Numbered from the stretch's first letter, positions 8,606-52,420 are shown. The stretch: 64,000 nucleotides of DNA from Nitrospinales bacterium (GCA_038154245.1 JAYOZP010000008.1:1831-65830); one strand, 5' to 3'. Numbers and translations: made by a program. The notes: generated by a model not told the origin, from the sequence alone.

Positions 8606-8726
8606 TAAAGGCAGAATTGCTGGGGAATCTCACAGCGCACAAAACGGATTGCTGCCGCTGCTTCCTTCCGGACCTGACGGGGTTCACAAAGGTCTCGCCG
8701 CGCGAGGCCCAACAAAACTGCCAAAT
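8606..8726 (-). ncRNA. ffs: Signal recognition particle RNA (small, 4.5S-type)
   Basis: The minus strand reads ...GUCAGGUCCGGAAGGAAGCAGC..., the conserved SRP domain IV motif. It is embedded in a long hairpin closed by GGCAG (8718-8722) and CUGCC (8610-8614). It lies immediately upstream of dnaX, a common synteny. Confidence 0.8.
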
Positions 8727-29712: not shown

Positions 29713-30792
29713 GTGTATTTAAAAAAAATAGTTCTAATCCCAATTTTATTATTGTTGACGCTCTTTTTCGATGTCGTCATAGCTTTTAGCTTAACGCAAC
29801 AAACAAAAAAAGACTCAATGGCTTTTACAAACACTCACAGCGATAATCGTATGCTGATAGTCATATCCGCTCCAACAGCGGATAACGATTATTATGCAGA
29901 TGTATACGACGATATAATTGCATTTGATATTGCTTACGCAAAAGCTGTCATGGGAAAAGATAACATTATAGTTTTGGGGGATAAAAAGGCATTAAATAAA
30001 CTTAGGAAAGAACTACCGGAAGACATTCTATTACACGCTTCAATGCGCGACATTTGGATGCGCGACTTCACTACCATCCATCCTTACACACCCATTCAGT
30101 TTCGTTATTCTGCCGCTGCGCAATCGGGAAGTCAGAAAAACGCCGACTGGGTTCAAGATGGATTCAACATTTTTGCTGAAAAACAAGGAGCCGATTTTCC
30201 ATACACAGATCTCATTTTAGATGGCGGAAACGTGGTGGATAATCATAAAGGAAAGGTCGTAGTAAGCGATCGCTTTTTAAAAGATAACAATTTAAACAAA
30301 GAACAAGCCAGACAAAAACTGAAAAAAACGCTTCATGCGACCCAAATCGCTATCATTCCAACAGACGACCCTGAGGGCCTAGCGCACGCGGATGGTATGT
30401 TAATGTTTATCGACGATAACACTCTTGTAGTAAATCGTTATGAAGAACCCTATCGAACAGAAATCATTCAAGAACTAAAAATGTCTTTCCCTTCTATAAA
30501 CATAGTGGAAATCAACGTAGAATGGGACGATTCCGTCTGGGATAAAAAATTTAGTTCCGCTTGCGGCATTTATGTCAATTCTCTTATGACTGAGCAAAAT
30601 ATTTATATGCCCACCTTTGGAAACCCGTTGGACCAAGAAGTCCACAGTCAAATAAACCGCCACACGTCTAAAAAAATCATTACTATACCGGCAGACAGAG
30701 TTTGCTTTATGGGAGGTAGCGTGAGGTGTTTGGGATGGCAACTTCATGGCAATATCGCTAAAGCTTTGATTGAATCGGCCCGTAATCGATAA
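29713..30792 (+). CDS. Secreted agmatine deiminase / Porphyromonas-type peptidylarginine deiminase family protein
   Basis: Signal anchor; IWMRDFTT, LDGGNVVDNHKGKVVVSD, AHADGMLMF and catalytic GGSVRCL motifs. Confidence 0.75.
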   Translation: MYLKKIVLIPILLLLTLFFDVVIAFSLTQQTKKDSMAFTNTHSDNRMLIVISAPTADNDYYADVYDDIIAFDIAYAKAVMGKDNIIVLGDKKALNKLRKELPEDILLHASMRDIWMRDFTTIHPYTPIQFRYSAAAQSGSQKNADWVQDGFNIFAEKQGADFPYTDLILDGGNVVDNHKGKVVVSDRFLKDNNLNKEQARQKLKKTLHATQIAIIPTDDPEGLAHADGMLMFIDDNTLVVNRYEEPYRTEIIQELKMSFPSINIVEINVEWDDSVWDKKFSSACGIYVNSLMTEQNIYMPTFGNPLDQEVHSQINRHTSKKIITIPADRVCFMGGSVRCLGWQLHGNIAKALIESARNR

Positions 30793-34926: not shown

Positions 34927-35013
34927 TGGTGCCGAAGAGAGGATTTGAACCTCCACGTCCTTGCGGACACATGAACCTGAATCATGCGCGTCTACCAATT
35001 CCGCCACTTCGGC
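34927..35013 (-). tRNA. tRNA-Leu (anticodon CAG), encoded CCA
   Basis: The minus strand GCCGAAG...CTTCGGCACCA forms a cloverleaf. The anticodon arm is CATGA-TTCAGGT-TCATG. It has a long variable arm and the T-loop GGTTCAAATCC. Confidence 0.9.
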
Positions 35014-35082: not shown

Positions 35083-36714
35083 TTAACAACCAGGCTTACC
35101 AGCGCCTCCGTTATCCAAAAAATCGGCTAATACAGAAACTTGTTTCGCTTGTTCTTCGTCTTCGATAATTTTTTCAATCTCTTCGTCGCTTTTATCAGCA
35201 AAAATTTCAAAAATGCGATCCACAACAGCGCCGCTACGAACGTCGGCAAATCTAGGATTTAACCGTCTTAACGCAGAAAACGGTATTTCACCTTCTAACA
35301 CTTCTTCAATAAACTCGGCTAAAGGGGATTCATTCGCTTCGGCAGCCGATACAGTTGTTGAGCGAATAGTGCGGTTATAACTTCCTCCATTTGTGATGAT
35401 ATTATCCGGATTATTTCCCGCTGGAGAAATTGCATTTCCAGTTATGTTTACATTTCCTCCTTCCGTTCTGATAAAACTATTTGAACTTAAATTGAAACCG
35501 CCGCCATCAGTTTGATCTGAATCGGCAACAGCGGTGAATGAACTATTAAATCCAGAAACATGGGCTTCAAAGCTCGACCCGGAAACAAAGTTGATATTTT
35601 CTTTGGCCGTTAGCGAAATGTTTTCATGGAATACTATATTAGCTCCAATTCCAAAAATATCGTCGCCAGAAATAAACTCAGTCTCCTTATGCCCTAAATC
35701 AACATCGCCGAAATTTATATTTCCTGAAGAATTATTTCCAACTGTTAATTTTTTGGCTCTTAATGAAATTATTTCATTTTGAGTAAGAACGATATTACAT
35801 CCAGTGGTCGCTATACAAATTGATCTATTCGATGAAAACGGCTTAATCGTAATCGTCCCAGAACTCGGACCGTTTATAAAAGAAAATGTATCCGTCGAAA
35901 TTGAAATGGGTACACCAAAGGTATCGCCTCCAGAACTTGTAAACCCGCTGAGCAAATCAATTTCGTTGGCAGTAACCGAAGCATTTCCTCCAGCGGTTGC
36001 GACAAAGATATTTGGATCTTGCTGATACTTCCCTGAAGCGGCGCTAGCGGAGTAGTTTCCCCCTCCAGTCAAAACATTACCTGTTAAATGCATAGAAGAA
36101 CCACTGAGATTCGTCGAAGTAGCGGACAAACTAACCGCTCCTCCTTTAGATTGAATCGGTCCCACAAAAACACCGCTAAAACCATTAATGCCAATAGTCC
36201 CTCCGCCTGAATTAATATCTTTCAATGCGGAAACGCTTCCACCTGTTGATGTTAAATCAATATTTCCGCCATTGGAATTGAGTTTTCCAAGAGTCAGACT
36301 CCCTCCCGCTTTGAAAGTAATAGCTCCACCATTCGTTCTAACAAGATCATTAGTATCGTTAAAAGTAATTGCGCCGCTTGTTGTTTGAAATCTTACAGAA
36401 TTATTTGAGGTTGTTTGTAAATTCAACTCATTATCGCTTAAATTTTGAATTGTGATCGTGTTATTCGCTTCCAAAACAATGTTATTTGTTGCATTTAAAG
36501 CTTCTAATGCGGATTCGGAAATATTAAAAGTTCCAGATCCATCTGCAAAAAGAACCACGTGATCGCCTGAAATTTGACCGTCGTCAGACGCCGAAGATCC
36601 ATCTTTTATTATGATATCGTCGGGATCTAAAAGTAAGGTACCGGTTTGTCCGTTAGCGGCTGTCGTAATAACCTCCCCATTAAAATCTAAAAATCGTTTT
36701 CCCGATACTTCCAC
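35083..36714 (-). CDS. TpsA-like exoprotein paralog 1, C-terminal part (same frame as 36910-37950, separated by one TAA)
   Basis: It begins within GGFVEVSGKRFLDFNGEVITTAANG..LLLDP, colinear with residues about 410 onward of the 951-aa paralog. The segment 36715-36909 is open in the same frame. Confidence 0.75.
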   Translation of the reverse strand: MEVSGKRFLDFNGEVITTAANGQTGTLLLDPDDIIIKDGSSASDDGQISGDHVVLFADGSGTFNISESALEALNATNNIVLEANNTITIQNLSDNELNLQTTSNNSVRFQTTSGAITFNDTNDLVRTNGGAITFKAGGSLTLGKLNSNGGNIDLTSTGGSVSALKDINSGGGTIGINGFSGVFVGPIQSKGGAVSLSATSTNLSGSSMHLTGNVLTGGGNYSASAASGKYQQDPNIFVATAGGNASVTANEIDLLSGFTSSGGDTFGVPISISTDTFSFINGPSSGTITIKPFSSNRSICIATTGCNIVLTQNEIISLRAKKLTVGNNSSGNINFGDVDLGHKETEFISGDDIFGIGANIVFHENISLTAKENINFVSGSSFEAHVSGFNSSFTAVADSDQTDGGGFNLSSNSFIRTEGGNVNITGNAISPAGNNPDNIITNGGSYNRTIRSTTVSAAEANESPLAEFIEEVLEGEIPFSALRRLNPRFADVRSGAVVDRIFEIFADKSDEEIEKIIEDEEQAKQVSVLADFLDNGGAGKPGC

Positions 36715-36909
36715 AAAACCGCCGTCGCCAGAATTTGCTCCACCTTTGGCTTCGATAGCTCCATAAAATCGAGTGGTGTCGTCGGCCCAGTAGATAACCC
36801 GGCCGCCATTGCCGCTGGTGATCGCATTGGCTTTAACAACTGTTTCGGAACCGCCAAAAGTTACCCTTGCGTTTTGTACCGATCCTTTGCCTTGGTAATC
36901 GCCGCCAAT

Positions 36910-37950
36910 TTAAACCTCGCCGCCGCCTTGGTTGCCGGAAACATCGACTGATGCCGTTCCAAACTGACCTACTTTTTCGCCCAAAATGTGAACGGTACCG
37001 CCAGTTTCTCCTGAATTGGTCCCTGAAGCATCCAATGTTCCTTCGTTCGTCGCGGTTCCATTTGGTCCCGCTTCTAAATATATTGCGCCATTCCTTTTAG
37101 AAACCGACTGCGCCCTGATAATTCCAGTATTATTCACTACGGATCTAACCATCTTTTGCGCCGTGTGCGCGGTCAATAAAACCTTTCCGCCATCTGCTTG
37201 AATCGTTCCTGAATTAAAAGCTCCGTTCTCGATGGTGTTGCCATCTTTATCCACAAACGAGCCATCGACAGGTTGAGTGATCGCAAAATTTATCAAACCG
37301 TCTCCGGAAAAATCCATTGTCGCCGCTTTACCCGAACCCAATGCTATTGAACCTAAATTCGCTGTTAACATTCCCCGGTTCTCGGTTCTTGCTCCCAACA
37401 ACCCGATATAATCTGAAGCGCTTATTTGACCTTCGTTAATTACAGAAGCTAACGGTTTAGACGGATCTTGAGTAAACCGATAATTACGATTCAAAAAATC
37501 CTGATCGGAAATCTGCAACGACGTCGCCATCAAACTACGTACGTTTATTATGGAATTCGGTCCAAAAAATACTCCCGATGGGTTTGTTATAAAAATTCTT
37601 CCGTTGGCGTTGAGCTTCCCTAAAATCGCCGTTGGGTCTTGACCAATGACTCTATTCAACGCAACCGAATTAGAGCTTGGCTGATTAAATTGTACCGATT
37701 CAGATTGGCCAATATTGAACCCTTGCCAATTGGTAATCATTTGGTTTGAAGATTGATTGATGACCATGTTTTGGCTATTGAGTTGTTGGATATTTCCATT
37801 CCCTCCGACTATTTGACCGTCTTGCGGCAAAGCAAATAACAAAGCAGGGAAATAGCTCATTAAAAAAACTAGAAACCCCACCCAAAATGGAACCAAATAA
37901 TAAGACAACGGTTTGATCGGTTTAAAATCTGTATTTATTTTCATCACCAA
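36910..37950 (-). CDS. TpsA-like exoprotein paralog 1, N-terminal part: signal peptide + haemagglutination-activity (TPS) domain; ends at premature TAA
   Basis: LLFALPQDGQIV...NQMITNWQGFNIGQSESVQFNQPS..ALNRV...NANGRIFITNPSGVFFG; about 90% identical to paralog 2. Confidence 0.8.
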   Translation of the reverse strand: MVMKINTDFKPIKPLSYYLVPFWVGFLVFLMSYFPALLFALPQDGQIVGGNGNIQQLNSQNMVINQSSNQMITNWQGFNIGQSESVQFNQPSSNSVALNRVIGQDPTAILGKLNANGRIFITNPSGVFFGPNSIINVRSLMATSLQISDQDFLNRNYRFTQDPSKPLASVINEGQISASDYIGLLGARTENRGMLTANLGSIALGSGKAATMDFSGDGLINFAITQPVDGSFVDKDGNTIENGAFNSGTIQADGGKVLLTAHTAQKMVRSVVNNTGIIRAQSVSKRNGAIYLEAGPNGTATNEGTLDASGTNSGETGGTVHILGEKVGQFGTASVDVSGNQGGGEV

Positions 37951-37977
37951 AAACTCAAAGATTTAAAATTTTATTAA

Positions 37978-40833
37978 TTAACATCCCGGATTAGGAGTAA
38001 CTTTATCCAAAAAATCATCCAAAACAGATACTTGTTGCGCCTGTTCATTATCTTCAACAATTTTTATAAACTCTTCCGGTGGTAAATCAGGGAAAAGGCC
38101 AAAAATAAGTATAGTTTCATCATCGATTGGAATATCGGGAAATAAAAATGGGTCCAAAATATTAGGAAACGGATCTTCCGGAAATGGAAACGGAAACGGA
38201 TCTTCCGGAAATGGAAACGGAAACGGATCTTCCGGAAATGGAAACGGAAACGGATCCTCTTCTAGAAAAAAAAATGGATCAAATGAATCTACACTGGCGA
38301 AAACTGTTGGTAGTTCTAATGTGGTTAGAACACCACCATTCGTATTAATTTGGCCAAAAACATCTACAAAATTACCGGTTAAATTGACATTACCACCTCT
38401 TGTGGTGATTGAACTGCTATTATCAATTGTAAAAACGCCGCCATTAAGTCCATCTGAGTCCGCTGTCACCGTAACAGACGCGCCAAAGCCCGAGACATGA
38501 GCCTCAATACTTGAACCTTTAGAATTGGAATCTATAAAAAAACTAACATCTTCTGCCGCGTCAAAGCTGATATCGTTATAAAAAAGGATATTAGCTCCAA
38601 GAGCCGTTATACTTTCACCAGAAATAAAATTAACCTTTTTTGGTCCTAAAATAACATCGCCTAAATTTATATCTCCGGTAAAAATATCTCCAATATTTAA
38701 TTTGGTGGTTCTTAAAGAAATTATCTCACTTTGGCTCAAATTGATAAAACAACCTGTTTTTCCAACACAAATTGAATCTCCTGGTATCGATGAAGCAATA
38801 GTGATACTATCGGTAGGTTCAGCGCCAGTATTAAACGAAGTTGAATAGGTATTAATGGACGAAGGAACTCCAAAAATATCATTTTTACCTGTAGAACCGC
38901 TAAGAAATTCAAAATCGGAAGCTAATAAGCTAACCGAACCGCCATTAGTTTTTACAAACATTGGGAAATCTTGAGTGTAGGTTCCCAAACCAGCATCGGC
39001 AGAAAAATTTCCACCTCCTGTCAAAATATTTCCCTTTACATTGATTCCAGAAAAAGCAAATAGATTGACATCGCCGCCTTTAGAATCAATACCCTTGGTA
39101 TCAATAGAAAACCCCGAGGTTAAATTTATATCGCCGCCATTCGATTTAAGCGTACCTAATGTCAAAGAATCGCCAGCTGAAAAAGTTATCGATCCTCCTT
39201 GTGTCTGAAGAACATCATTGGTGTCTTGAAAGGTGATTGACCCAAAACTAGCTTGTAAAGTTACGGAATGTCCAGATACTTGCTGAAGGTCCAACAAATT
39301 ATCGTTTAAATCTTGAATGGTAATACTATCCTCAGCTTGCAAAACGATATTGGTAGTCGAACTCAAACTTTCTAAGGTTAATTCTCCAATCTCGAAAGGT
39401 ACTAAACCTCCATCAGCTTCTAAAATCTCTCCAAGAGGGCTTCCTGTTGATATTTCTGGGTCGTCATCGGCAGTACCATTTACAATATCAATAAACTCCG
39501 GATCTAAGAGCAAAGTCCCGATTTCGCCATTCGCGGCTGTGGTTATAACTTCGCCATTAAAATCAAGGAATCGTTTGCCCGATACTTCCACGAAACCACC
39601 ATCGCCTGAATTAGCGCCGCCTTTAGCTTCAATCGCGCCATAAAACCGAGTGGTGTCGTCGGACCAGTAAATCACTTTGCCGCCATTGCCATTATTTATC
39701 GCGTTGGCTTTTACAACAGTGTCTGGACCGCCATAAGTAACCAGAGCGTTTTGAACCGTTCCTTTTCCCTGATAATCCCCGCCAATTAAAACCTCGCCCC
39801 CGCCCTGGTGGCCAGAAACATCGATAATAGCTTTGCCTAATTGCCCTACTTTATGACCTAAAATACGAACGCTACCGCCCGTCTCTCCTGAACCAGTTCC
39901 CGATGCGTCTAAAGTTCCTTCGTTTGTTGCGGTACCATTTGGTCCCGCTTCTAAATAAATCGCGCCGTTCCTTTTAGAAACCGATTGCGCTCGAATAATG
40001 CCAGTGTTGTTAACCACCGAGCGAACCATCTTTTGCGCCGTATGTGCGGTCAATAAAACTTTGCCGCCATCCGCTTGAATAGTTCCCGAATTAAAAGCAC
40101 CGTTCTCAATCGTGTTGCCGTCTTTATCTACAAACGAACCGTCAACGGGTTGCGTGATTGCAAAGTTAATCAAACCATCGCCAGAGAAATCCATCGTCGC
40201 CGCTTTACCAGAGGCTAAAGCAATCGATCCTAAATTGGCCATCAACATGCCACGATTTTCGGCGCGCGGTCCTAGCAAGCCGATGTAACCCGAAGCGTTT
40301 ATTTTTCCTTCGTTAATTACAGAAGCTAAAGGTTTCGAAGGGTCTTGAGTAAAGCGATAATTGCGGTTCAAGAAATCTTGATCGGAAATCTGCAACGACG
40401 TCGCCATTAAACTACCAACATTGATAATTGAATTTGGACCAAAAAACACTCCTGACGGATTGGTCACAAATATTTTTCCATTGGCGTTGAGCTTCCCTAA
40501 AATCGCCGTTGGATCCTGACCTATCACTCGATTCAATGCGACTGCATCGGCGCTTGGCTGATTAAATTGCACCGTTTCAGTTTGACCAATATTAAAACCT
40601 TGCCAGTTAGTAATCATCTGATTCGAAGATTGATTGATCACCATGTTTTGGTTGTTCGGTTGTTGGATATTTCCATTTCCCGCGACTATCTGACCACCTT
40701 GCGGCAGGGCAAATACCAAAGCAGGAAAATAGCTCATTAAAAAAACTAGAAGTCCAACCCAAAAAGGAACCAAATAATAAGGCCACGGCCTGAAAAATTT
40801 AGAATCTTTCTTACTATTCACAGTCAAAAACAT
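37978..40833 (-). CDS. TpsA-like large exoprotein paralog 2 (951 aa), intact
   Basis: Signal peptide and TPS domain as above, then the GGFVEVSG...LLLDP module, a beta-helix-like G/N/T/S repeat region, (PFPFPEDPF)n, and a C-terminal ...NPGC. Confidence 0.85.
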   Translation of the reverse strand: MFLTVNSKKDSKFFRPWPYYLVPFWVGLLVFLMSYFPALVFALPQGGQIVAGNGNIQQPNNQNMVINQSSNQMITNWQGFNIGQTETVQFNQPSADAVALNRVIGQDPTAILGKLNANGKIFVTNPSGVFFGPNSIINVGSLMATSLQISDQDFLNRNYRFTQDPSKPLASVINEGKINASGYIGLLGPRAENRGMLMANLGSIALASGKAATMDFSGDGLINFAITQPVDGSFVDKDGNTIENGAFNSGTIQADGGKVLLTAHTAQKMVRSVVNNTGIIRAQSVSKRNGAIYLEAGPNGTATNEGTLDASGTGSGETGGSVRILGHKVGQLGKAIIDVSGHQGGGEVLIGGDYQGKGTVQNALVTYGGPDTVVKANAINNGNGGKVIYWSDDTTRFYGAIEAKGGANSGDGGFVEVSGKRFLDFNGEVITTAANGEIGTLLLDPEFIDIVNGTADDDPEISTGSPLGEILEADGGLVPFEIGELTLESLSSTTNIVLQAEDSITIQDLNDNLLDLQQVSGHSVTLQASFGSITFQDTNDVLQTQGGSITFSAGDSLTLGTLKSNGGDINLTSGFSIDTKGIDSKGGDVNLFAFSGINVKGNILTGGGNFSADAGLGTYTQDFPMFVKTNGGSVSLLASDFEFLSGSTGKNDIFGVPSSINTYSTSFNTGAEPTDSITIASSIPGDSICVGKTGCFINLSQSEIISLRTTKLNIGDIFTGDINLGDVILGPKKVNFISGESITALGANILFYNDISFDAAEDVSFFIDSNSKGSSIEAHVSGFGASVTVTADSDGLNGGVFTIDNSSSITTRGGNVNLTGNFVDVFGQINTNGGVLTTLELPTVFASVDSFDPFFFLEEDPFPFPFPEDPFPFPFPEDPFPFPFPEDPFPNILDPFLFPDIPIDDETILIFGLFPDLPPEEFIKIVEDNEQAQQVSVLDDFLDKVTPNPGC
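38165..38258. repeat. 27-bp tandem repeat, about 3.4 copies, coding (PFPFPEDPF)n in paralog 2
   Basis: ggaaacggatcttccggaaatggaaac is repeated perfectly three times (38165-38245), followed by a partial copy. Confidence 0.95.
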
Positions 40834-41881: not shown

Positions 41882-42030
41882 TTTTCTCCCTCTATTAAAA
41901 AAAATGTCGAATAATTATTTATATTTAATTAAATTATTGTAAATTTAAACAAAAAAATCAAACTTATAATTTACGATTCAATCGCTTTTTAGTTTTATGT
42001 ACATTAATGATGCCAATTTCTCCAAAAAAT

Positions 42031-42046
42031 AAGGAGATAGATCACA
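42031..42046 (-). promoter_or_regulatory. 16-mer TGTGATCTATCTCCTT, copy upstream of FecR-1 operon
   Basis: The minus strand reads aaatgtgatctatctccttatttttt, 150 nt upstream of the FecR-1 start. Confidence 0.45.
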
Positions 42047-42207
42047 TTTCTTAAGATTTCTCAGGTTTATTTCGGGCTATAAAATAGAGTAACGCTAAGA
42101 ATTTTCGTCTAAAGTCCTCAATTAAGCGAGTCTCTAATAATTGGAGATTTTAGCTTGAGGCAACTCGCTTGCCTTTTGTTTGCAAAGGCAGCTCGTGGCC
42201 AAATTCA

Positions 42208-42229
42208 ATTTTTAGAGGTTCCCTTAAAA
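42208..42229 (+). promoter_or_regulatory. 22-nt near-palindromic motif, copy 2
   Basis: atttttagaggttcccttaaaa in the divergent FecR-1 / KAS intergenic region. Confidence 0.45.
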
Positions 42230-42373
42230 GCAGAAATAAAGAAATGGCTTGAAAAATACCCTTTCTATATGCTAATTTCTCCCTCTTTATCCATATTATA
42301 GTGGGTTCCAGGGCTGTAATGATTTAGCGCCTGTTTCCTAATGGGACGTTTGGCATTTTTACCTCGAAACTGA

Positions 42374-43624
42374 ATGGTTGACCAAAAAAACCCAGACTGG
42401 CGGATTGTCATCACGGGTGTTGGGCTAACCTCTCCTAACGGCAACAATCTCGCGGAGTACAGAGAAAATCTGCTCCAAGGAAAATCGGGTATTGAAAAAA
42501 TTGATATCCGGTATATGGGAGAAGTATTAGCCGGAGTTTGCAATTTCGACGAATTCAAATACCAAAAAAAGAAAGAACGAAGAAGAGGAACTCGGGCGGG
42601 TTCGGTTGGAATTTATTGCGCCCATGAGGCTATTTCAGATAGCGGAATTGAGTTTGATTCGTTCGATAAATCTAGAATAGGTATTTATTGCGGCGTCACA
42701 GAACATGGCAATGTTGAAACAGAAAACGAAGTTTTCAACATAAGCCAATACGATTACGACGTTAAATATTGGTCGCACCATCACAATCCGCGAACGGTAG
42801 CAAATAATCCCGCTGGGGAGATTTCTCTTAATTTAAAAATTACCGGTCCTCATTATTCGATTGGCGCTGCTTGCGCGGCTGGTAATTTAGGAGTGATCCA
42901 GGGATGTCAAATGTTGCGGCTAAAAGAAGTCGATATGGCTTTAGCCGGGGGTATTTCGGAAAGCATCCATACATTTGGTATCTTTGCTAGTTTTAAAAGC
43001 CAAGGAGCTTTGGCCTGGCATGAAGATCCAGAAAGGGCCAGTCGCCCTTTCGATTTAGATCGAAACGGAATTGTTTGTTCTGAGGGAGGATGTTTATATA
43101 CATTAGAGAGATTACCGGACGCTCAAAAAAGAGGAGCTAAAATTTACGGAGAAGTGGTTGGATACGGCGTTAACTCCGACGCGGTTGATTTTGTGCTACC
43201 CCAACCTAAAGGGCAAACCGATTGTTTAAATATGGCGTTAAATAATGCGGGGTTGAAAGCGGACGATATTAATATAGTAAATACCCATGCAACTTCGACT
43301 CCACAAGGCGATATCCAAGAATGTATAGCAATTCGCAACGTTTTTGGTAAAAGTAAGAATGTTTGGGTTAATAACACAAAAAGCTATATCGGGCATGCAA
43401 TGGGCGCCGCCGGAGCGCTTGAATTGGCGGGAAACCTGCCGGCGTTTGAAGATAAAATTGTACACCCTACTATTAATGTTGATAAATTGGACCCAGAATG
43501 CGCTTTGGACAACCTGGTTATTAACCAACCAAAACAGATTGAGCAGGTAAATTACATATTAAATAACTCATTTGGCATGCTCGGTATCAATTCCGCTTTG
43601 ATCGTGAAACACTTTGAAATATAA
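42374..43624 (+). CDS. Beta-ketoacyl-ACP synthase (KAS I/II type)
   Basis: Cys-His-His triad context: SIGAACAAG, NTHATSTPQGD, KSYIGHAMGAAG. Confidence 0.9.
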   Translation: MVDQKNPDWRIVITGVGLTSPNGNNLAEYRENLLQGKSGIEKIDIRYMGEVLAGVCNFDEFKYQKKKERRRGTRAGSVGIYCAHEAISDSGIEFDSFDKSRIGIYCGVTEHGNVETENEVFNISQYDYDVKYWSHHHNPRTVANNPAGEISLNLKITGPHYSIGAACAAGNLGVIQGCQMLRLKEVDMALAGGISESIHTFGIFASFKSQGALAWHEDPERASRPFDLDRNGIVCSEGGCLYTLERLPDAQKRGAKIYGEVVGYGVNSDAVDFVLPQPKGQTDCLNMALNNAGLKADDINIVNTHATSTPQGDIQECIAIRNVFGKSKNVWVNNTKSYIGHAMGAAGALELAGNLPAFEDKIVHPTINVDKLDPECALDNLVINQPKQIEQVNYILNNSFGMLGINSALIVKHFEI

Positions 43625-43668
43625 TAGGCGGTAAATTTGAGCAAGGAATCATTAGAGGAGTCTAATAA

Positions 43669-43932
43669 ATGACGAGAGACGACGTTAGAAATGCGGTCAT
43701 TAGAATTCTGGCCGATATTGCGCCGGACGAAGATTTTGATGGATTGAACGACGAAGAGAAATTGCGAGATCAGTTTGACTTGGATTCGATGGATTTTCTA
43801 GACATCGTTATGGAGTTGAGGAAACGATATAATATCGAAGTTCCCGAAGCCGATTACGAACGTCTCGTCACCATGACAAGCTGTATCGATTATTTACAAC
43901 CTCTTCTTAAAAACCAGCAAATGGCTAGCTAA
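43669..43932 (+). CDS. Acyl carrier protein
   Basis: 87 aa with the phosphopantetheine site DLDSMDFLDIV. Confidence 0.85.
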   Translation: MTRDDVRNAVIRILADIAPDEDFDGLNDEEKLRDQFDLDSMDFLDIVMELRKRYNIEVPEADYERLVTMTSCIDYLQPLLKNQQMAS

Positions 43933-44054
43933 AAAGCTCAATCTTCGGCTGTTCTTTCCCCCTATTAGAACAGCCTCGCCTCGAAAAATTTAATACCTAG
44001 CCGTGTTTTTTTACCCCTCCCCATAGAATTTTTACTGAAAGCTCATAATTAAAT

Positions 44055-45440
44055 ATGAAATATGACGCCATTATTCTCGGCGCCGGGTTATCCGGTTTGG
44101 CGGCTGGAATTCGATTAGCCTGCTACGATAAAAAAGTATGTATCGTAGAAAAACATGTCGAAATTGGAGGGTTGAACTCTTTCTATCAAATGGAAAATCG
44201 GTGGTTTGACGTTGGGCTTCACGCGATGACAAACTACACTCCAAAAGGCGTTCGCTCATCCCCATTAGGAAAGCTTCTAAAACAACTTCGATTTAAACAT
44301 GACGACTTTCAACTATGCCAACAAAAAGAATCGGAAATCAATTTCCCAGGAGTTTCTCTAAGGTTCTCCAACAATTTTGAACTTCTAAGACAAGAAATAT
44401 CGGAAAAGTTTCCAAATCAAATCGACGGTTTTGATCGATTGACTCAAAGAATTCGCGAACACGACGACCTTTCGCTAAAAAGCGGTTTTCTTTCCTCCCG
44501 ATCCGTTTTGGCGGAATACCTTACGGAACCCAAACTTGCTGAGATGTTATTTTGCCCATTAATGTTTTACGGCAATCCTCAGGCGGACGATATGGACTTT
44601 ACCCAATTCACAATCATGTTTAAAGCTATATTCCTAGAAGGTTTCGCGAAACCTTTAGGCGGAATGCGCCACATACTTAAACTGCTGGCCGACAAATACA
44701 AAAGCTACGGAGGAGAATTGAGGTTAGGGAGGGCCGTAAAATCTTTAAACTTAACAAACGAGGAAGTTAATTCAGTAACGTTAGCCAAAGGCGAAGAACT
44801 CCAGGCGGAAACCGTTATCTCATCGATTGGTTACGCCGAAACCATGCGGCTTTGCGCTCCTGGAAAGTTTTCCGAGGACTCTTTACAAGATGGGGAAATC
44901 TCTTTTGTAGAATCTCAATATGTTTTAAACATCCAACCCTCAAAAATTGGATACGATAAAAGTATCGTTTTTTTTAATACCAAGGACGAATTTAGTTATC
45001 GTAAACCCAAAGAAATGGTAGATTTATCATCGGGTATCGTCTGTTGCGCCAACAATTTTGATTATCCAGAAGAGCAAGAAGGTCTGGTCCGGTTCACTTT
45101 TTTAGCCAATCCGGATTTGTGGTTCGGGTTATCTCGGACAGAATATAAAGAAGCAAAGTCTTATTGGCAGAAAAAAACTTTGGAAGCTGTGGTCGGTTTT
45201 TTGCCCGATTTTCGCGATTCTGTGGTATTTTTAGATACTTTCACCCCAAAAACTATAAAAAAATTTACCGGACACGCTAATGGAGCCGTCTACGGATCGC
45301 CTGTTAAAATCCGAGATGGAAAAACTCCCTTGAAAAACCTATTTATTTGTGGCACTGACCAGGGTTTTTTAGGTATTATTGGAGCCACTTTGAGCGGCGT
45401 TACCGTGGCGAATATTTACGGGCTTAAAGCATCTTATTAA
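44055..45440 (+). CDS. FAD-dependent oxidoreductase, phytoene-desaturase (CrtI/COG1233) family
   Basis: N-terminal dinucleotide fold YDAIILGAGLSGLAAGIRLA..VCIVEKHVEIGG. Length is about 460 aa. Confidence 0.75.
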   Translation: MKYDAIILGAGLSGLAAGIRLACYDKKVCIVEKHVEIGGLNSFYQMENRWFDVGLHAMTNYTPKGVRSSPLGKLLKQLRFKHDDFQLCQQKESEINFPGVSLRFSNNFELLRQEISEKFPNQIDGFDRLTQRIREHDDLSLKSGFLSSRSVLAEYLTEPKLAEMLFCPLMFYGNPQADDMDFTQFTIMFKAIFLEGFAKPLGGMRHILKLLADKYKSYGGELRLGRAVKSLNLTNEEVNSVTLAKGEELQAETVISSIGYAETMRLCAPGKFSEDSLQDGEISFVESQYVLNIQPSKIGYDKSIVFFNTKDEFSYRKPKEMVDLSSGIVCCANNFDYPEEQEGLVRFTFLANPDLWFGLSRTEYKEAKSYWQKKTLEAVVGFLPDFRDSVVFLDTFTPKTIKKFTGHANGAVYGSPVKIRDGKTPLKNLFICGTDQGFLGIIGATLSGVTVANIYGLKASY

Positions 45441-45498
45441 ATAAGAGTTTAGATAAAGAAATTAAATTAGTTTTTAAAAATTTACTGTTGGAAAAATT

Positions 45499-46941
45499 AT
45501 GGCAAGGAATTGGTTAAAAGGAGCAAGGACTCGTTACGATAGCGTTGTAATAGGCAGCGGTTTAGCGGGAATGACCGCCGCAAACATGCTTGCGAAAGCC
45601 GGTCATTCGGTTTTACTTCTTGAGCAACATTACAATTTTGGCGGACTAGCTACCTGGTTTAAACGAAAAGGCGGACACATCCTAGATATTTCTCTTCACG
45701 GGTTTCCAATTGGGATGATAAAAACTTGCCGCAAATACTGGAGCAAAGAGATCGCCGATTCCATTGTTAGGCTCAAAGGAGTTCGTTTCGATAATCCTCA
45801 ATTCGCTTTTTCCACCACCTTTGACAAAATAGATTTTACCAACATTATGCGCGAGCGTTTTGGCGTGCTAAAAGAAGTGATCGACGATTTTTTTGTTACA
45901 GCTCGTCAAATGAACTTCTACGACAATCTTTCCATGACTACTCGGGATTTGTTCGAAAAGTTTTTCCCAGGAAGAACCGATATTCATCGGCTGTTAATGG
46001 AACCTATTACTTATGCGAATGGCTCTACTTTAGACGACCCCGCAGTAACCTACGGTATTGTATTTTCTAATTTCATGGACAAAGGCGTGTATACATTTAA
46101 GGGCGGGACCGACGCGCTTGTTAAAAAAATGAAAAAGGAAATGCAAAAAAATGGAGTGGACATTCGGAATCATTGCTTAGTAGACAAAATTTTAGTCGAA
46201 GATAAAAAAACTCGCGGCGTTCGGGTCAACGGTCAAGAAATTGAATCCGATGTTGTGTTGTCAAATTCAAGTTTACCGGCAACAATCCATAAGCTAACGG
46301 GAGACGAGCATTTTTCTCCAGAGTTTCTGGAAGAAGCGCGAAAAGTTAGAATGAACAACAGCAGTTGCCAAGTTTACATGGGAATAAAAAAAGGCGAAAA
46401 GATCGATTACGCCGGCGACTTGTTATTCACGTCTGTTGAAGACGAATTTAGCGCAAAATCTTTGTGCGATAAAAACGTTACCAGCAGAACATTCTCATTC
46501 TACTATCCAGAAATTAGACCGGGTTCCGATCAATACTCAATCGTTTCTTCAACAAACGCTAATTTTGAAGACTGGGCTAATTTAACTGAAGAAGAATATC
46601 ACGTCGAAAAAGATAAACTGATCGAAGACACTTTAAACGCTCTCGAAAAATACGTTCCCGACATTCGAAAGAAAGTAGATCATGTTGAAGCTTCGACTCC
46701 TAAAACGTTTAAACGTTACACCATGCACACGCGTGGATCTTCGTTTGGCACTAAGTTCGAAGGGCTCAAAATTAGTAAAGAGTTGCCCGAGCAAATTGCC
46801 GGATTATTTCATGCGGGATCGGTGGGAATAATTATGTCGGGTTGGCTGGGAGCCGCTAACTATGGCGTTATTGTTTCGAACGAGGTCGATCGATTTCTTA
46901 GAAAAATAAAATCGGAAAGATTAGAAACCGTAAGCGTCTAA
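45499..46941 (+). CDS. Second FAD-dependent oxidoreductase, phytoene-desaturase (CrtI/COG1233) family
   Basis: [37 protein letters not shown], with a C-terminal [10 protein letters not shown]-type segment. Confidence 0.75.
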
Positions 46942-47001
46942 TAACGCCGCGAAAGATCCCGTTTAGTGTAGAAACTTTTTCCCTTCCTTATAGTTATTTT
47001 T

Positions 47002-47745
47002 ATGCAATTTGATTTTTCCAACCAAACCGCCATCGTAACCGGCGGAACCCGCGGTATAGGTAGGAGCGTTTCAGAAGCGTTTTTAAAAGCAGGCGCTAAA
47101 GTTGTGGCAACTTACAAAAGTAATCACGAAGCGGCTGAATCCTTTTGCGAAGATAACTCTCAATATGCTTCTCAAATACAACTCGCGCCATTTGACGTTG
47201 CCGATAGCGAAGGAGTCGAGGGATTCTACAAACTTATGGAAGAAAAAAATGGACCCTTCCAAATTTTGGTCAATAACTCTGGAATTCGTAAAGATTCCGT
47301 TGTCGGAATGATGAAAGAAGAAGATTGGCGAGATGTTATTAACGCCAATTTAACCGGAACTTTTTTGATGAGCAAATTGGCGGTTCATCATCTTATGCGT
47401 CAAAGGTATGGACGCATCGTAACCATCACCTCTCCTATTGGGCGCATGGGTTTTGCAGGGCAATCCAATTACGCCGCTTCCAAAGCCGCGCAAGTTGCTT
47501 TCACTCAATCTTTGTCAAAAGAAGTCGCTAGTCGTGGGATCACCGCCAATTGCGTTTCGCCGGGCTTTATCGAAACGGACTTCATATCCGACCTATCTGA
47601 CAAACAGCGGGACGGCTATAAAGCTTTAGTACCGCTCAAACGATTTGGCAAACCTGAAGAAGTCGCCAATGCGGTATTGTTTCTCGCCTCCAAAGAAACC
47701 GCTTATATTACGGGAACCACTCTCGAAATATCCGGCGGACTATAA
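47002..47745 (+). CDS. fabG: 3-oxoacyl-ACP reductase (SDR)
   Basis: TGGTRGIGRS, NNSGI and YAASKAA motifs; 247 aa. Confidence 0.9.
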   Translation: MQFDFSNQTAIVTGGTRGIGRSVSEAFLKAGAKVVATYKSNHEAAESFCEDNSQYASQIQLAPFDVADSEGVEGFYKLMEEKNGPFQILVNNSGIRKDSVVGMMKEEDWRDVINANLTGTFLMSKLAVHHLMRQRYGRIVTITSPIGRMGFAGQSNYAASKAAQVAFTQSLSKEVASRGITANCVSPGFIETDFISDLSDKQRDGYKALVPLKRFGKPEEVANAVLFLASKETAYITGTTLEISGGL

Positions 47746-47958: not shown

Positions 47959-48714
47959 TTAAAAAATCAACGAAAGGCAGGTTACGCCGCCATCGGCCTT
48001 TTCAAATTCGCTCATCGGGATTTGGATAACTTGAAAACCGAATTCGCGAATCCTGGCGGCTAGTTTTGGGTAACCCTGCGGAGCGATTACATAATCGCCC
48101 ACTACCAAACAATTGGCGGAATAACTTTCCTTAGAAGACACTTCAATAATTTGTAAATTTTTAAAAGCCGAAGCATCCACTCTGGAAGCGTCCAAAATAA
48201 TTTTTCCATCGCCTAGATAAGTCGCCGCGCTTTTTAAATGAAGTCCTTCCAAAACGGGAACAGCTGTAATGGTTTTTTTGGTAAACGCTTTTAAAACCTC
48301 AATACCTTCCAAATTTGTGCGCGCAGATTGCCCGATAAAAATTTCCTCATCCGTTTGCAACACGTCGCCTCCGTCTAACGTCGCCGGAGGAAGCATGTGA
48401 ACGACTGCCATATAGCGCTCGAGTTCGGCAACTATAGAATCGCCTTCGCCGCGTCGAGTTTCCGCTTTCATAGAACAAAGAACCGCTTTATCTTCTAATA
48501 TTACGACAGGGTCTTCGACAAAAGGAGCGTCTGGAAAATTTTCCTCAGGATCTAAGTGAATTACCGAAAGACCGGCGTTCGTTAAAGCGGAGGTGTATTG
48601 TCTATGCTGGTTAAGGGCTTTACCAAAGTCTATGCAATCGCTTTGGGGGTGATTAGAAATAGCGTTTGCAAAATCAGGGGTAGGTTCTCGAACTAAAGCT
48701 ATAGAACGATTCAT
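47959..48714 (-). CDS. Dimethylarginine dimethylaminohydrolase (DDAH)/amidinotransferase-family protein
   Basis: TLDGGDVL, GLHLKS and the C-terminal catalytic DGGVTCLSLIF. Confidence 0.8.
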   Translation of the reverse strand: MNRSIALVREPTPDFANAISNHPQSDCIDFGKALNQHRQYTSALTNAGLSVIHLDPEENFPDAPFVEDPVVILEDKAVLCSMKAETRRGEGDSIVAELERYMAVVHMLPPATLDGGDVLQTDEEIFIGQSARTNLEGIEVLKAFTKKTITAVPVLEGLHLKSAATYLGDGKIILDASRVDASAFKNLQIIEVSSKESYSANCLVVGDYVIAPQGYPKLAARIREFGFQVIQIPMSEFEKADGGVTCLSLIF

Positions 48715-48743
48715 GAATTAACCCCATTTAGCGTTACAAAAAC

Positions 48744-49217
48744 TTAATCGATGGTGGGAGTATTCATGAGCCGAGAGAAATTTAGCATATCAAAATTCTT
48801 TTTAGCCCCTCGATACTTTTTCATCATTTCTTTGGATGGTTTAAGATCTTCTTTGATCTTATCTTTCTGAGCGATGTAGACATAACCCTTTGTTTGCGAA
48901 AAATCGTGACGGGTTAGTTCCATAATTCTTCGATCATATTCGTCGGGATATTGGTAGTGACGATCCAGTTCGGCAAGTTTAGCCTCTTCCATTTCATATA
49001 CCATCCCGATCATCATTCCCAAATTGTCATGTGTCGGTTCAATATTGGCGTGGCCCAATCTTTCTTCCCCCCCATTATCCACGGGGATTTTATTAAAAAC
49101 CCGTTTCCAGGCCGAAAGGGTTACTGAATATTTAGTTGTGTAAGAAAATCCTAATTCTTTATAAATCTTTTCGTTGATCAGTTCATCATAAATAAATACA
49201 CGGACGATATTTGACAT
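48744..49217 (-). CDS. Gamma-glutamylcyclotransferase-like (AIG2/GGACT fold) protein
   Basis: VFIYDELIN..., GHANIEP, GMVYEM...LD..YQYPDEYDR, GYVYIA pattern. Confidence 0.55.
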   Translation of the reverse strand: MSNIVRVFIYDELINEKIYKELGFSYTTKYSVTLSAWKRVFNKIPVDNGGEERLGHANIEPTHDNLGMMIGMVYEMEEAKLAELDRHYQYPDEYDRRIMELTRHDFSQTKGYVYIAQKDKIKEDLKPSKEMMKKYRGAKKNFDMLNFSRLMNTPTID

Positions 49218-49843: not shown

Positions 49844-50548
49844 ATGTCGAAAAAATTGGAATGCCTCAAAAACGTTTCTATTTTTTCGGGAATGACCGAT
49901 GCCCACCTTGAAGAAATCGCTTCAATCGCCTTAGAAAAAAAATTCAAAAAAAATAAAGTCATTTTTAATAAGGGCGATCGAGGTAATGTCTTGTTCATTC
50001 TCACCACCGGAACTGTAAAACTATCTCTTTTTGACCAATCCGGTAAAGAAATGATCTTAAAAATGCTTTACAAAAACGATTTTTTTGGAGAAATGTCGCT
50101 ATTAGACGATTATTTTCGTTCAGCGACCGTCACCGCTGTGGAAGATTCAAACGCGCTTCTAATTTATAGAAACGAATTCATGCGATTGATTCACGAGTTT
50201 CCAGGTATCGCCTTGGAAATGCTGAAAGTTTTCATTCATCGTTTAAAAACAAGCGATAAAAAAATCGTTAGTCTTACTTTTTTTGACGCCTTCAGAAAAG
50301 TAAGTTCTACAATCATTGATTTAGCCGAAAAGACGGGTCGTCAAGAAGGAAAACACACCGCTATCGACTTGACATTGACGCGCCAGGACATGGCCAATAT
50401 GATTGGCTTAAGCCGGGAAACGTTAACCCGTATTTTACAAGAACTGCATTTTCGAGAGATTTTGAACGTTAGTAGGAAGAAAATAGTCATTCTCAACCCA
50501 AAAGCCTTGGAAGAAGAAGTTCAAAACGCCCGGGTTCCAAAAATCTAA
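49844..50548 (+). CDS. Crp/Fnr-family transcriptional regulator (CRP-like recognition helix)
   Basis: A cNMP-binding domain (FFGEMSLL) plus an HTH with SRETLTRIL. R, E and R occupy the positions of E. coli CRP RETVGR. Confidence 0.9.
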   Translation: MSKKLECLKNVSIFSGMTDAHLEEIASIALEKKFKKNKVIFNKGDRGNVLFILTTGTVKLSLFDQSGKEMILKMLYKNDFFGEMSLLDDYFRSATVTAVEDSNALLIYRNEFMRLIHEFPGIALEMLKVFIHRLKTSDKKIVSLTFFDAFRKVSSTIIDLAEKTGRQEGKHTAIDLTLTRQDMANMIGLSRETLTRILQELHFREILNVSRKKIVILNPKALEEEVQNARVPKI

Positions 50549-50614
50549 ATTTTGGCGATTTGCTTTCTAACCCTCCTTTTTTTAATCTCATCCAATCCTT
50601 TGCTTTTAAAAAAA

Positions 50615-50630
50615 TGTGATCTACCTCCTT
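50615..50630 (+). promoter_or_regulatory. 16-mer TGTGATCTACCTCCTT, copy upstream of FecR-2
   Basis: aaaatgtgatctacctccttttctt, 59 nt upstream of the FecR-2 start. Confidence 0.45.
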
Positions 50631-50688
50631 TTCTTAAGCAGCCTTCTTGTCGTATATTAGAATTAGATAATAATAAAATTTTCATTGC

Positions 50689-51789
50689 GTGCTTATGTTT
50701 TCGAATATCTTACAAATTTTAAATTCGAATAAATATAAAAAGTGGACTTTGCTTTCATTTTGGATGTTGGTCCTCTCGCTAAGTTGGTTGGTCGAAGCCA
50801 AAGCGCAAGAAAAACCGGTTGGAATAATCATTGGCGTTATTGGAGAAATTCAGTATAGATCCGCAGCCGACGCTCCGGACACTCCTGTTGCCGGTAAAGA
50901 AAAACCTGGCGACACAAAACTTGTTTCTTTTTCTCCCTGGGAAAAAGTTAAATTCAAGCAACCCGTTTACGCTAAAGACGAATTCAAAACTTCAAAGCGC
51001 AGTCGTCTTAAAATAAAATTTAGCGATAATAGTCTGATGGCTCTTGGTCCCAATTCTAAAATGCAAGTAGCCAAGTATGTTTACGATAAAAAAAAGAAGA
51101 TGCGCCAGGGAGTGATGAAAATTTCTTATGGGCTATCGATGTATATCGTTAACAAAAGTCAAAAAAATAAACAATCCAATTTTCAATTGGTTTCTCCAAC
51201 GGCTAATTTAGCGGCGCGCGGCACTCAGGGATATGTAAGTTCGTCTGATAAAATCACTTACTTGGCTAACCAAGCGGGGGCGATGGACTCCTCTAGTAGC
51301 GATCCAAATATTGCCGGCAACCAATTAGTTGGCGCGATGAAAAAAAATTCTATTCCAGCGGGAAAACCGCCAACCCCGCCTACAAATTTATCAAATAATG
51401 AATTAAGCGCCGTTAGAAATGTTGTTATGGGACCGATAGGTATTAACCCTAACAACCCTATAATTAAAGACTTAACCCAAACCGCGCCTGTGCAAAAGAA
51501 AAAGTCTAAAGAATCCAAAAAAGACGATAAAGGCGGCGGCGGCAAAAGCGACTCCGATAGTAAAGAAGGCGATGGCGGCGACTCGGGTGGAGACTCCGGA
51601 GGAGACAGCGCAGATTCTGGCGGAGGAGATTCCGGCGGCGGAGGTGGAGATTCTGGCGGTGGAGGAGGCGGAGGTTTTGCCGAAAGTTTTACCGCAACGG
51701 GTAGCTCCGCAGGCGGTGGCGGCGGCGGAGATTTCGCTCCAGTAAATAATCCATTTTCCCCTGCGGCGCTAAGTTCCTGTTCCGGCTAA
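50689..51789 (+). CDS. Secreted FecR-domain protein with Gly/Asp/Ser-rich tail (FecR-2)
   Basis: Paralog of 40844-41881 (KFKQPVYAKDEFKTSKRSRLKIKFSDNSLMALGPNSKMQV; FQLVSPTANLAARGTQGY). The tail ends SSCSG. Confidence 0.8.
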   Translation: MLMFSNILQILNSNKYKKWTLLSFWMLVLSLSWLVEAKAQEKPVGIIIGVIGEIQYRSAADAPDTPVAGKEKPGDTKLVSFSPWEKVKFKQPVYAKDEFKTSKRSRLKIKFSDNSLMALGPNSKMQVAKYVYDKKKKMRQGVMKISYGLSMYIVNKSQKNKQSNFQLVSPTANLAARGTQGYVSSSDKITYLANQAGAMDSSSSDPNIAGNQLVGAMKKNSIPAGKPPTPPTNLSNNELSAVRNVVMGPIGINPNNPIIKDLTQTAPVQKKKSKESKKDDKGGGGKSDSDSKEGDGGDSGGDSGGDSADSGGGDSGGGGGDSGGGGGGGFAESFTATGSSAGGGGGGDFAPVNNPFSPAALSSCSG

Positions 51790-52168: not shown

Positions 52169-52196
52169 GCCTAGCTCCTAGTTTTAAGAGCTAGGC
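52169..52196 (+). terminator. Hairpin after the small secreted-protein gene
   Basis: gcctagct (52169-52176) pairs with agctaggc (52189-52196), followed by tctt..atttt. Confidence 0.35.
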
Positions 52197-52211
52197 TCTT
52201 AGCAATTTTGA

Positions 52212-52233
52212 ATTTTTAAAGATTCCCTTAAAA
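52212..52233 (+). promoter_or_regulatory. 22-nt near-palindromic motif, copy 3 (2 mismatches)
   Basis: atttttaaagattcccttaaaa, about 190 nt upstream of the giant gene. Confidence 0.4.
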
Positions 52234-52310
52234 GTTGAGAAAATTCTTCAGAAAGACCTGAAAAAAGACCCACCAAAAACGATTGAATTTTCTCAAAAAA
52301 ACTTTGCAAA

Positions 52311-52326
52311 TGTGACGTATCTCCTT
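52311..52326 (+). promoter_or_regulatory. 16-mer TGTGACGTATCTCCTT, copy upstream of the giant TpsA-like gene
   Basis: caaatgtgacgtatctccttacttttt, 95 nt upstream of TTG 52421. Confidence 0.45.
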
Positions 52327-52420
52327 ACTTTTTAACCAAAAAAGCCGTACAATCTAGAGACTACATTAAGGTCTTTTTTCTCAAATTGAGACGGGTTATC
52401 AATTACCGAGGAAACTCTTT

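Follow-up and report, generated by a model that had tools for sequence, protein, structure and literature searches.

A 64,000-nucleotide stretch of DNA from a Nitrospinales bacterium (GCA_038154245.1, JAYOZP010000008.1:1831–65830; the whole stretch is hereafter termed the window, with positions counted from its first letter) carries five co-oriented, intact open reading frames (ORFs) on the + strand, together spanning 42374–47745, exactly where a preliminary description of this sequence had placed them. The first encodes a FabF-like β-ketoacyl-ACP synthase (KAS; 42374–43624, 416 residues, with the N- and C-terminal Pfam ketoacyl-synt domains) and the second a private acyl carrier protein (ACP; 43669–43932, 87 residues, Pfam PP-binding at 29.6 bits, containing the motif DLDSMD). 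Two flavin adenine dinucleotide (FAD) proteins follow: F1, of the CrtI/amine-oxidase superfamily (44055–45440, 461 residues), and F2, of the CrtI/phytoene desaturase (PDS) fold (45499–46941, 480 residues), both matching Pfam Amino_oxidase and NAD_binding_8. The last gene encodes a FabG-like 3-oxoacyl-ACP reductase (KR; 47002–47745, 247 residues, Pfam adh_short_C2 and KR). The gene content and order given in the preliminary description, together with its Cys-His-His synthase and DLDSMD carrier protein, are borne out by the ORFs, by Pfam and NCBIfam and by alignment.

The five ORFs are separated by 44–122 bp, and the operon stops after KR because a convergent DDAH-like gene follows (47959–48714, − strand). 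Genes annotated within ~20 kb on either side are unrelated to the cluster and have housekeeping or envelope roles. Measured against a 97% relative, all five genes give a ratio of nonsynonymous to synonymous substitution rates (dN/dS) of 0.017–0.044, indicating strong purifying selection; the five-gene form is not decaying.

Family membership of KAS, ACP and KR

The KAS retains an intact Cys-His-His triad and aligns with the FabF proteins of S. aureus and P. aeruginosa (structures 2GQD and 4B7V). It reaches 335 bits on the TIGR03150 fabF model, under the equivalog cut-off of 494 bits, and 93 bits on omega_3_PfaA against a cut-off of 1010, and is 63–74% identical to the corresponding KAS of other phyla (cross-phylum identities, here and below, are taken from tblastn best segments). 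Toward its C-terminus (window 43540–43600), the gating loop reads GMLG instead of the GFGG of FabF, a substitution that could be a signature of this KAS group and may influence which acyl chains are admitted. The GMLG loop is also present in a Planctomycetota KAS copy (L037:20–442; L numbers denote loci from the genome scan described below), and so occurs in both Nitrospinota and Planctomycetota.

The ACP lies under the cut-off on all NCBIfam ACP models (33 versus 70 bits on TIGR00517) and does not classify as a housekeeping AcpP, its recognizable features being limited to a generic PP-binding domain and the serine motif DSM(D). KR passes the FabG subfamily model NF009466 (256.5 versus 222 bits) and falls narrowly under the strict equivalog TIGR01830 (278 versus 298 bits). 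NCBIfam contains no specific model for any protein of the cluster.

F1 and F2 and the CrtI superfamily

F1 and F2 are paralogous (24% identity, E = 3e-30), their mutual similarity exceeding that of either to anything characterized, and both carry GxGxxG at the N-terminus. Enzymes of the CrtI, CrtD and CrtISO family work on long hydrophobic chains beside existing double bonds, and it is among carotenoid isomerase, CrtD and crtI_fam that the best NCBIfam matches of F1 and F2 are found, all far under the cut-offs: 55 bits (F1) and 87.5 bits (F2) versus 238 on TIGR02734 crtI_fam, 78 and 100 bits versus 587 on the CrtISO model TIGR02730 carot_isom, at most 100 bits versus 550 and 580 on the CrtD models TIGR02733 and NF045637, and 34–37 bits versus 283 on HpnE. 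Since every curated CrtI, CrtD, CrtISO and HpnE cut-off is missed by a wide margin, we rejected the identification of F1 and F2 as carotenoid genes, in line with the preliminary description, which had favored an ACP-bound acyl chain over a carotenoid. Phytoene/squalene synthase is found neither among the conserved neighbors in 84 related loci nor among the annotated genes of the window.

Matches to PDB sequences are marginal (E ~1e-6 to 1e-8), and searches through NCBIfam, Pfam, PDB sequences and Foldseek returned no characterized homolog of either protein, only remote CrtI-superfamily matches. An AlphaFold (AF2) model of F2 (predicted local distance difference test, pLDDT, 80; predicted template-modeling score, pTM, 0.82) retrieved as top Foldseek structures the carotenoid desaturase 4REP, the archaeal oxidoreductase of unknown function 3KA7, CrtI (4DGK) and plant PDS (5MOG), at ~16% identity and TM scores of 0.6–0.7, and from this resemblance F2 is assigned the CrtI/PDS fold. 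F1 belongs, as judged by sequence, to the superfamily of F2, and the two are best placed together as a separate, uncharacterized clade.

Across Nitrospinota and other phyla, F2 is the most conserved gene of the system (62–76% identity) and F1 the less conserved paralog (41–61% across phyla). Homologs of F1 carry only generic annotation, and the best 120 homologs of each protein (70–99% identical for F2, 59–94% for F1) bear Nitrospina, Nitrospinaceae or Nitrospinota names or none, which places the window in Nitrospinota. Orthology to the anammox proteins Kuste3336 and Kuste3607 (compared over their first 400 residues, from Table S6 of PMC4790861) was also considered and rejected, F1 and F2 being 22–27% identical to these proteins, the same as to Pantoea CrtI.

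A seven-gene cassette across phyla

An early impression of a narrow family, gained from a library of 50% representatives (where a single representative stands for all orthologs above 50% identity, hence the impression), was rejected when a genome scan revealed a wide spread. The scan, made over one genome per GTDB species with an F2 alignment as query, matched at least 600 stretches, at least 557 of which encode an F2 relative. The best 80 loci of these (at least 557) include Chloroflexota/Dehalococcoidia, "Deltaproteobacteria", Nitrospirales and Planctomycetota labels, with F2 at 62–70% identity; cultured Planctomicrobium (SH668, SH527 and SH661) and Maioricimonas (JC845) strains are among the Planctomycetota carriers, and in Nitrospinaceae the cassette is nearly universal.

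In its full form, as seen in Nitrospina gracilis and Ca. Nitrohelix vancouverensis, the cassette comprises seven genes, KAS-ACP-F1-F2-KR-DH-ER, in which KR is followed by a FabZ-like dehydratase (DH; 132 versus 113 bits on NF000582) and, as the last gene, a FabI-like enoyl reductase (ER). The DH of relatives also touches ApeI-like and ApeP-like Pfam models; ER is 58–79% identical across phyla and lies under the curated housekeeping cut-off. Seven-gene order and strand are kept in Nitrospinota and in delta- and Nitrospirota-labeled loci (tblastn synteny), and all 12 Chloroflexota-labeled loci keep the order as far as their contigs extend, the same arrangement recurring in dozens of independent genomes of several phyla. 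Only L085 and L086 (both standing for the 97% relative), L087 (an 80% relative) and L010 end after KR in the manner of the window. Because the common cassette has DH and ER after KR and only one sub-lineage is without them, the five-gene form is best read as the derived state of that sub-lineage. The absence of a dehydratase and an enoyl reductase, which the preliminary description had noted for the five genes, thus holds within the window for cassette-type enzymes (by tblastn) but not as a trait of the system.

In 62 of 82 loci F2 is immediately preceded by F1, and in 54 of 59 an ACP gene is found no more than 700 bp ahead of F1; ACP-F1-F2 is the invariant core of the cassette, still present in some nine Nitrospinota loci where KAS is not adjacent. 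Phycisphaerae and Pirellulales are usually without KR, and some Planctomycetaceae have F2 alone, in variable and uninformative contexts. The recurrent order, the adjacency of ACP, F1 and F2 and the purifying selection place the gene arrangement far beyond chance. The preliminary description had held that its proposal would fall if orthologous clusters were never linked to ACP and KAS genes elsewhere; the opposite was found, with the link to a private ACP, and usually to a KAS, recurring across phyla.

In one N. gracilis 3/211 assembly (GCA_000341545.2), KAS is split into pieces of 290 and 76 residues (L001:6879–8174), whereas GCA_021845485.1, with an identical F2, has an intact KAS of 414 residues (L002:6930–8174); the split is probably an assembly frameshift.

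Recurrent partners of the cassette

Partners were sought by all-against-all clustering of the ORFs from 84 loci, which yielded only two further recurrent neighbors: a Sfp-type phosphopantetheinyl transferase (PPTase), situated after ER in 14 loci, and genes of the Ole pathway, which the cassette often adjoins outside Nitrospinaceae. No acyltransferase, thioesterase or transporter is conserved among the 84 clustered loci; a weak WS/DGAT-like gene occurs in four. The 64-kb window itself contains neither ole genes nor a PPTase.

An OleA homolog (a 349-residue thiolase) stands directly upstream of KAS in nine Chloroflexota-labeled loci, and an OleA-like thiolase lies near the cassette in three Planctomycetota loci. 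The OleA homolog passes NF006720 (448 versus 285 bits), and its best PDB matches are 3ROW, 3S21, 4KU2, 5VXD and related entries at 239 bits, with the best FabH at ~85; we take 3ROW and its relatives to be X. campestris OleA, the PDB label reading only '3-oxoacyl-[ACP] synthase III'. OleC-like ligases pass PRK09274 (717 versus 478 bits) and score 592–623 bits on olefin β-lactone synthetase models, under the cut-off of 900, and OleD-like reductases reach 387–393 bits, under a cut-off of 580. Genes for OleC-like and OleD-like proteins adjoin the cassette in L052 (a Nitrospinota metagenome-assembled genome, MAG), L056, L057, L073, L075, L079, L080 and L082, which are drawn from Planctomycetota, this one Nitrospinota MAG and unclassified MAGs.

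Fusion of the two systems is seen in L088, a Nitrospirota-labeled MAG with an 11-gene operon, oleA-oleB-oleC-oleD-KAS-ACP-F1-F2-KR-DH-ER, that is co-directional and has overlapping stop and start codons; its oleB encodes a haloalkane-dehalogenase-like hydrolase, in keeping with the known nature of OleB. A second locus, L089, has oleABCD-KAS-ACP-F1. The preliminary description had suggested an unusual, possibly polyunsaturated lipid as the product, and this linkage to oleABCD in other phyla fits such a product.

Duplicated OleA-KAS pairs are seen in L032, L043 and L049 (all Chloroflexota-labeled), in the arrangement OleA-KAS-ACP...OleA-KAS-F1-F2-KR-DH-ER-PPTase. Within 10 kb, OleA is the only Ole protein encoded in these loci (OleB, OleC and OleD are absent), and their pathway may therefore draw on unlinked genes or end at a ketone or 2-alkyl-3-keto acid. 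About 30 Nitrospinaceae genomes retain ACP-F1-F2 without an ole gene within 10 kb.

Comparison with known systems

The idea that CrtI-like proteins in fatty-acid synthase (FAS) clusters might desaturate acyl-ACP is not new, having been proposed in 2009 for anammox bacteria and Desulfotalea (Rattray et al, 2009; PMC2649909). The type II FAS (FAS II) clusters concerned, of anammox bacteria (Kuste3336, Kuste3607) and Desulfotalea psychrophila (DP1860, DP2405, DP2406), have been proposed to serve a ladderane or polyunsaturated-lipid pathway (PMC2649909; PMC4790861). They have in common with the cassette a type II KAS, an ACP, a reductase/dehydratase complement and flavoproteins of the amine-oxidase/CrtI superfamily, and acyl-ACP desaturation is hypothesized for both. 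The cassette departs from the anammox clusters in gene order and in being linked to ole genes; among its partners there is no radical S-adenosylmethionine (radical-SAM) protein, methyltransferase, phenylacetyl-CoA ligase or ketosynthase/chain-length-factor (KS/CLF) pair. From these comparisons, the cassette can be distinguished from the earlier cases by its distinct flavoprotein clade, its compact radical-SAM-free ACP-F1-F2 core and its fusion to oleABCD. We found no publication in the open-access literature that describes the cassette or links ole genes to a CrtI-like/FAS II cassette.

A different comparison is offered by Shewanella and Photobacterium, in which a Pfa synthase feeds OleABCD to yield hentriacontanonaene (PMC6463001; PMC3098273). 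As in the Pfa–Ole pairing, the cassette couples a dedicated KS/ACP/KR/DH/ER set genomically to the Ole head-to-head pathway. Pfa, however, is a multidomain type I megasynthase with tandem ACPs, in which FabA-like DH domains set the cis double bonds, whereas the cassette is built of discrete single-domain type II enzymes, among them two CrtI-fold flavoenzymes and a FabZ-like DH. Set against OleABCD of X. campestris and S. oneidensis, related loci carry OleA and OleB-, OleC- and OleD-like proteins in canonical order, fused to the cassette, whereas the window is without ole genes and many loci have only OleA, or only OleC and OleD. Some Planctomycetes contain a C31:9 hydrocarbon.

For acyl desaturation beside an existing double bond by a CrtI-superfamily enzyme, a precedent may be seen in UfaD of the Rhodobacter furan fatty acid pathway. 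UfaD reportedly acts on phospholipid-bound chains, its partners being the methylase UfaM and UfaO rather than a KAS and an ACP. It is described as a CrtI-like desaturase that works on fatty acyl chains (PMC7380195). With CrtI, CrtD and CrtISO, the shared features are the FAD-binding Rossmann motif (F1 and F2) and the overall fold (F2 model); F2 has ~16% structural-alignment identity to CrtI-type structures, and the cassette is without carotenoid gene context. An aryl-polyene (APE) cluster was considered and rejected, the conserved neighborhood having no KS/CLF pair, two ACPs, adenylating enzyme or LolA/MMPL export.

Proposed function and alternatives

We propose, at roughly even chances, that FAS-like cycles take place on the private ACP of the cassette, that F1 and F2 introduce or reposition double bonds, and that the output is a special unsaturated acyl chain; any specific chemistry for F1 and F2 we regard as far less secure than this general outline. 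Going by family membership, the FabF-like KAS would elongate the chain on the private ACP and the FabG-like KR would reduce the 3-keto group, with the FabZ-like DH and FabI-like ER finishing the cycle in most relatives. As the window has no DH or ER, these would have to be encoded by unlinked genes in this genome or supplied by the housekeeping FabZ and FabI. F1 and F2 would then add or move double bonds on the ACP-tethered chain, by desaturation and/or flavin-dependent isomerization, the enoyl intermediates of the cycle offering the unsaturation beside which CrtI-family enzymes act. The acyl chain predicted to result would be of a special unsaturated type and may be polyunsaturated. In loci with adjoining ole genes, it would most likely be a dedicated substrate for head-to-head condensation to long-chain olefins, which would make the cassette a dissociated parallel to the Pfa synthase supplying Ole in Shewanella; in Nitrospinaceae, a membrane lipid or an unlinked Ole pathway are candidate fates.

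A more ambitious form of the proposal joins these elements: the cassette would be a dissociated type II, flavin-dependent counterpart of Pfa, with F1 and F2 the first desaturases/isomerases of the CrtI superfamily to act on ACP-tethered acyl chains, providing a new polyunsaturated route whose chains would be condensed by OleABCD in several phyla and would enter an undescribed lipid in Nitrospinaceae. We put this forward tentatively and think it rather doubtful that all of its parts hold together.

Several observations weigh against these proposals. We know of no CrtI-family enzyme shown to act on acyl-ACP. Cassette-type DH and ER have no tblastn match anywhere in the 64-kb window, and the FabI-like ER encoded in the seven-gene form points to full reduction in at least some cycles. 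No ole gene lies near the cassette in the window or in any Nitrospinaceae locus, and the best 120 homologs of the L052 OleC-like protein, suggestively, include no Nitrospina-named one; this organism may therefore stand outside the Ole connection. The taxonomic labels of the MAGs, on which the phylum-level spread is described, are their submitters' own. Finally, the tested analogs Kuste3336 and Kuste3607 only failed to make lycopene (PMC4790861), and at 22–27% identity are not orthologs of F1 and F2.

Among the alternatives, F1 and F2 might act not on acyl-ACP but on a finished neutral lipid, extending unsaturation outward from the central cis bond of an Ole olefin in the way of CrtI; such an olefin is formally like 15-cis-phytoene, and the part of KAS, ACP, KR, DH and ER would be confined to supplying chains of defined length. 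The CrtI/PDS fold of F2, whose closest structures are carotenoid and phytoene desaturases, the co-operonic placement of the cassette with oleABCD and a complete reducing set that includes a FabI-like ER and suits the supply of saturated chains all speak for this analogy. We nevertheless consider it unlikely: F1 and F2 are linked most tightly to the ACP rather than to ole genes, they always lie between ACP and KR, and the ~30 Nitrospinaceae genomes noted above keep ACP-F1-F2 without an ole gene within 10 kb. Nor do we give much credence to a role in primary metabolism, in which organisms lacking FabA/FabB would make ordinary monounsaturated fatty acids by way of the cassette; FabX of Helicobacter is a flavoenzyme precedent. 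By analogy with FabX, one flavoenzyme would dehydrogenate acyl-ACP, the other would isomerize trans-2 to cis-3, and KAS would elongate the cis intermediate. A general role of this kind would suit the complete set of elongation enzymes, the strong purifying selection and the high cross-phylum identity (KAS 63–74%, F2 62–76%, ER 58–79%); it is made quite improbable by ACP, KAS and ER scores under the curated housekeeping cut-offs, by a private ACP and a Sfp-type PPTase, which are hallmarks of specialized pathways, by the operonic fusion with oleABCD and by a patchy distribution.

A further possibility, and a very unlikely one, is that F1 and F2 are RetSat-like saturases/reductases, or that the product is not a lipid at all, the ACP carrying a small cofactor or metabolite intermediate. 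Some homologs are indeed annotated as all-trans-retinol 13,14-reductase, although this label is automatic and the scores are far under every cut-off; the best NCBIfam matches fall in the CrtISO/CrtD branch, home to both isomerases and saturases, and the cassette is without a thioesterase or acyltransferase. Against a non-lipid product, no cofactor-pathway genes are conserved nearby in 89 loci, and ole genes and the PPTase are the only recurrent partners. An ordinary carotenoid (CrtI/CrtD) or ladderane-type pathway lying merely beside fatty-acid genes would account for database names that read 'phytoene dehydrogenase', and outside anammox bacteria 'ladderane' calls of the antiSMASH style are frequent (PMC9902471). 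The chance of this is close to negligible in view of the crtI_fam, CrtD and CrtISO scores far under their cut-offs, neighborhoods with no conserved phytoene/squalene synthase gene or radical-SAM partner, and F1 and F2 that resemble Kuste3336 and Kuste3607 no more than Pantoea CrtI (22–27%).

The proposal of ACP-tethered desaturation bears on a question that dates from 2009, namely the role of CrtI-like flavoproteins inside FAS clusters, and the cassette makes this question testable: because it is small, highly conserved and free of radical-SAM proteins, it is the simplest system for acyl-ACP desaturation or isomerization by CrtI-like enzymes. Its fusion to oleABCD is a candidate means of supplying special acyl chains to Ole in bacteria without a Pfa synthase, which is of interest for membrane adaptation, for polyunsaturated hydrocarbons as biomarkers in sediments and perhaps for the bioengineering of hydrocarbons. 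Nitrospinaceae are the main marine nitrite oxidizers and globally important, and an unrecognized lipid in this family might be of use as a biomarker. Interest in the cassette also comes from its wide spread and high conservation, its near-universal presence in these marine nitrite oxidizers and its experimental tractability.

The divergent upstream region

KAS is separated from the divergently transcribed FecR-1 gene (− strand) by a 492-bp intergenic region (41882–42373). The preliminary description had noted intergenic motifs shared between the cluster and the FecR-1/TpsA side, and these sequences are real. A repeat search found a ~19-nt motif, AAATGTGAyCTAyCTCCTT, at 42026–42052 (toward FecR-1), 50609–50635 and 52298–52333, sites that precede FecR-1, FecR-2 and a giant TpsA-like gene, respectively, and share the orientation of the gene concerned. 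It contains a TGTGA half-site and may therefore be an operator of a Crp/Fnr-family regulator; a gene for such a regulator (49844–50548) lies just ahead of FecR-2. On the KAS side of the intergenic region, the sole shared element is a 49-nt direct repeat in two 76% identical copies, one at 42191–42239 (135–183 nt upstream of the KAS start) and the other at 52195–52243, upstream of the giant TpsA-like gene (repeat families D9, I3 and I4 fall in this region). A promoter/terminator scan gave matches that were not enriched over shuffles.

The FecR/two-partner secretion (TPS) neighborhood is found only in the window and its 97% relative, the flanks of the cassette differing in every other lineage. 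Co-regulation with FecR/TpsA may apply in the window's own lineage, but the functional link that the preliminary description had raised as a possibility has no comparative support as a conserved one: the neighborhood is not conserved, and the main motif points to the FecR/TpsA genes.

Other Nitrospinota cassettes have genes of these types 1–9 kb away that are not syntenic with the window: a FecR-like gene identified by eye (L024:7154–7927), a FecR-like gene with a weak tblastn match (L010:18563–18820) and ShlB/TPS genes (L003:19198–21446). Their presence may reflect only how common FecR/TPS genes are in these genomes.

Other features of the window

The giant TpsA-like ORF (52420–64000, + strand) encodes at least 3860 residues with a TPS/filamentous-haemagglutinin-type N-terminus and runs off the end of the window. 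It is preceded by FecR-2 (50689–51789) and a 104-residue ORF, and stands out by a guanine-cytosine content of ~0.50, versus ~0.40 in the rest of the window, and a strong positive AT skew. On the other side of the cluster, three tandem genes on the − strand (35083–36714, 36910–37950 and 37978–40833) contain long direct repeats ~2.9 kb apart (D1, D2 and D4). The latter two have a TPS domain (Pfam), the first (35083–36714) has no Pfam match, and a 27-nt tandem repeat lies internally at 38165–38259. The whole of 35083–40833 looks like a recent duplication, with a cassette-like organization of TpsA N-termini.

At gathering threshold, Rfam matched just two features of the window, a bacterial small signal recognition particle (SRP) RNA (8615–8714, − strand) and a tRNA (34930–35013, − strand), with no structured RNA in the cluster region. 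Arginine-related genes are scattered around the cluster, in 47959–49217 (−), 29713–30792 (+) and 21403–22791 (+); they comprise the convergent DDAH-like dimethylargininase at 47959–48714 (−), a GGACT-like protein, a PAD_porph-type deiminase and an argininosuccinate lyase. A homolog of the lipid A deacylase LpxR is encoded at 27334–28452.

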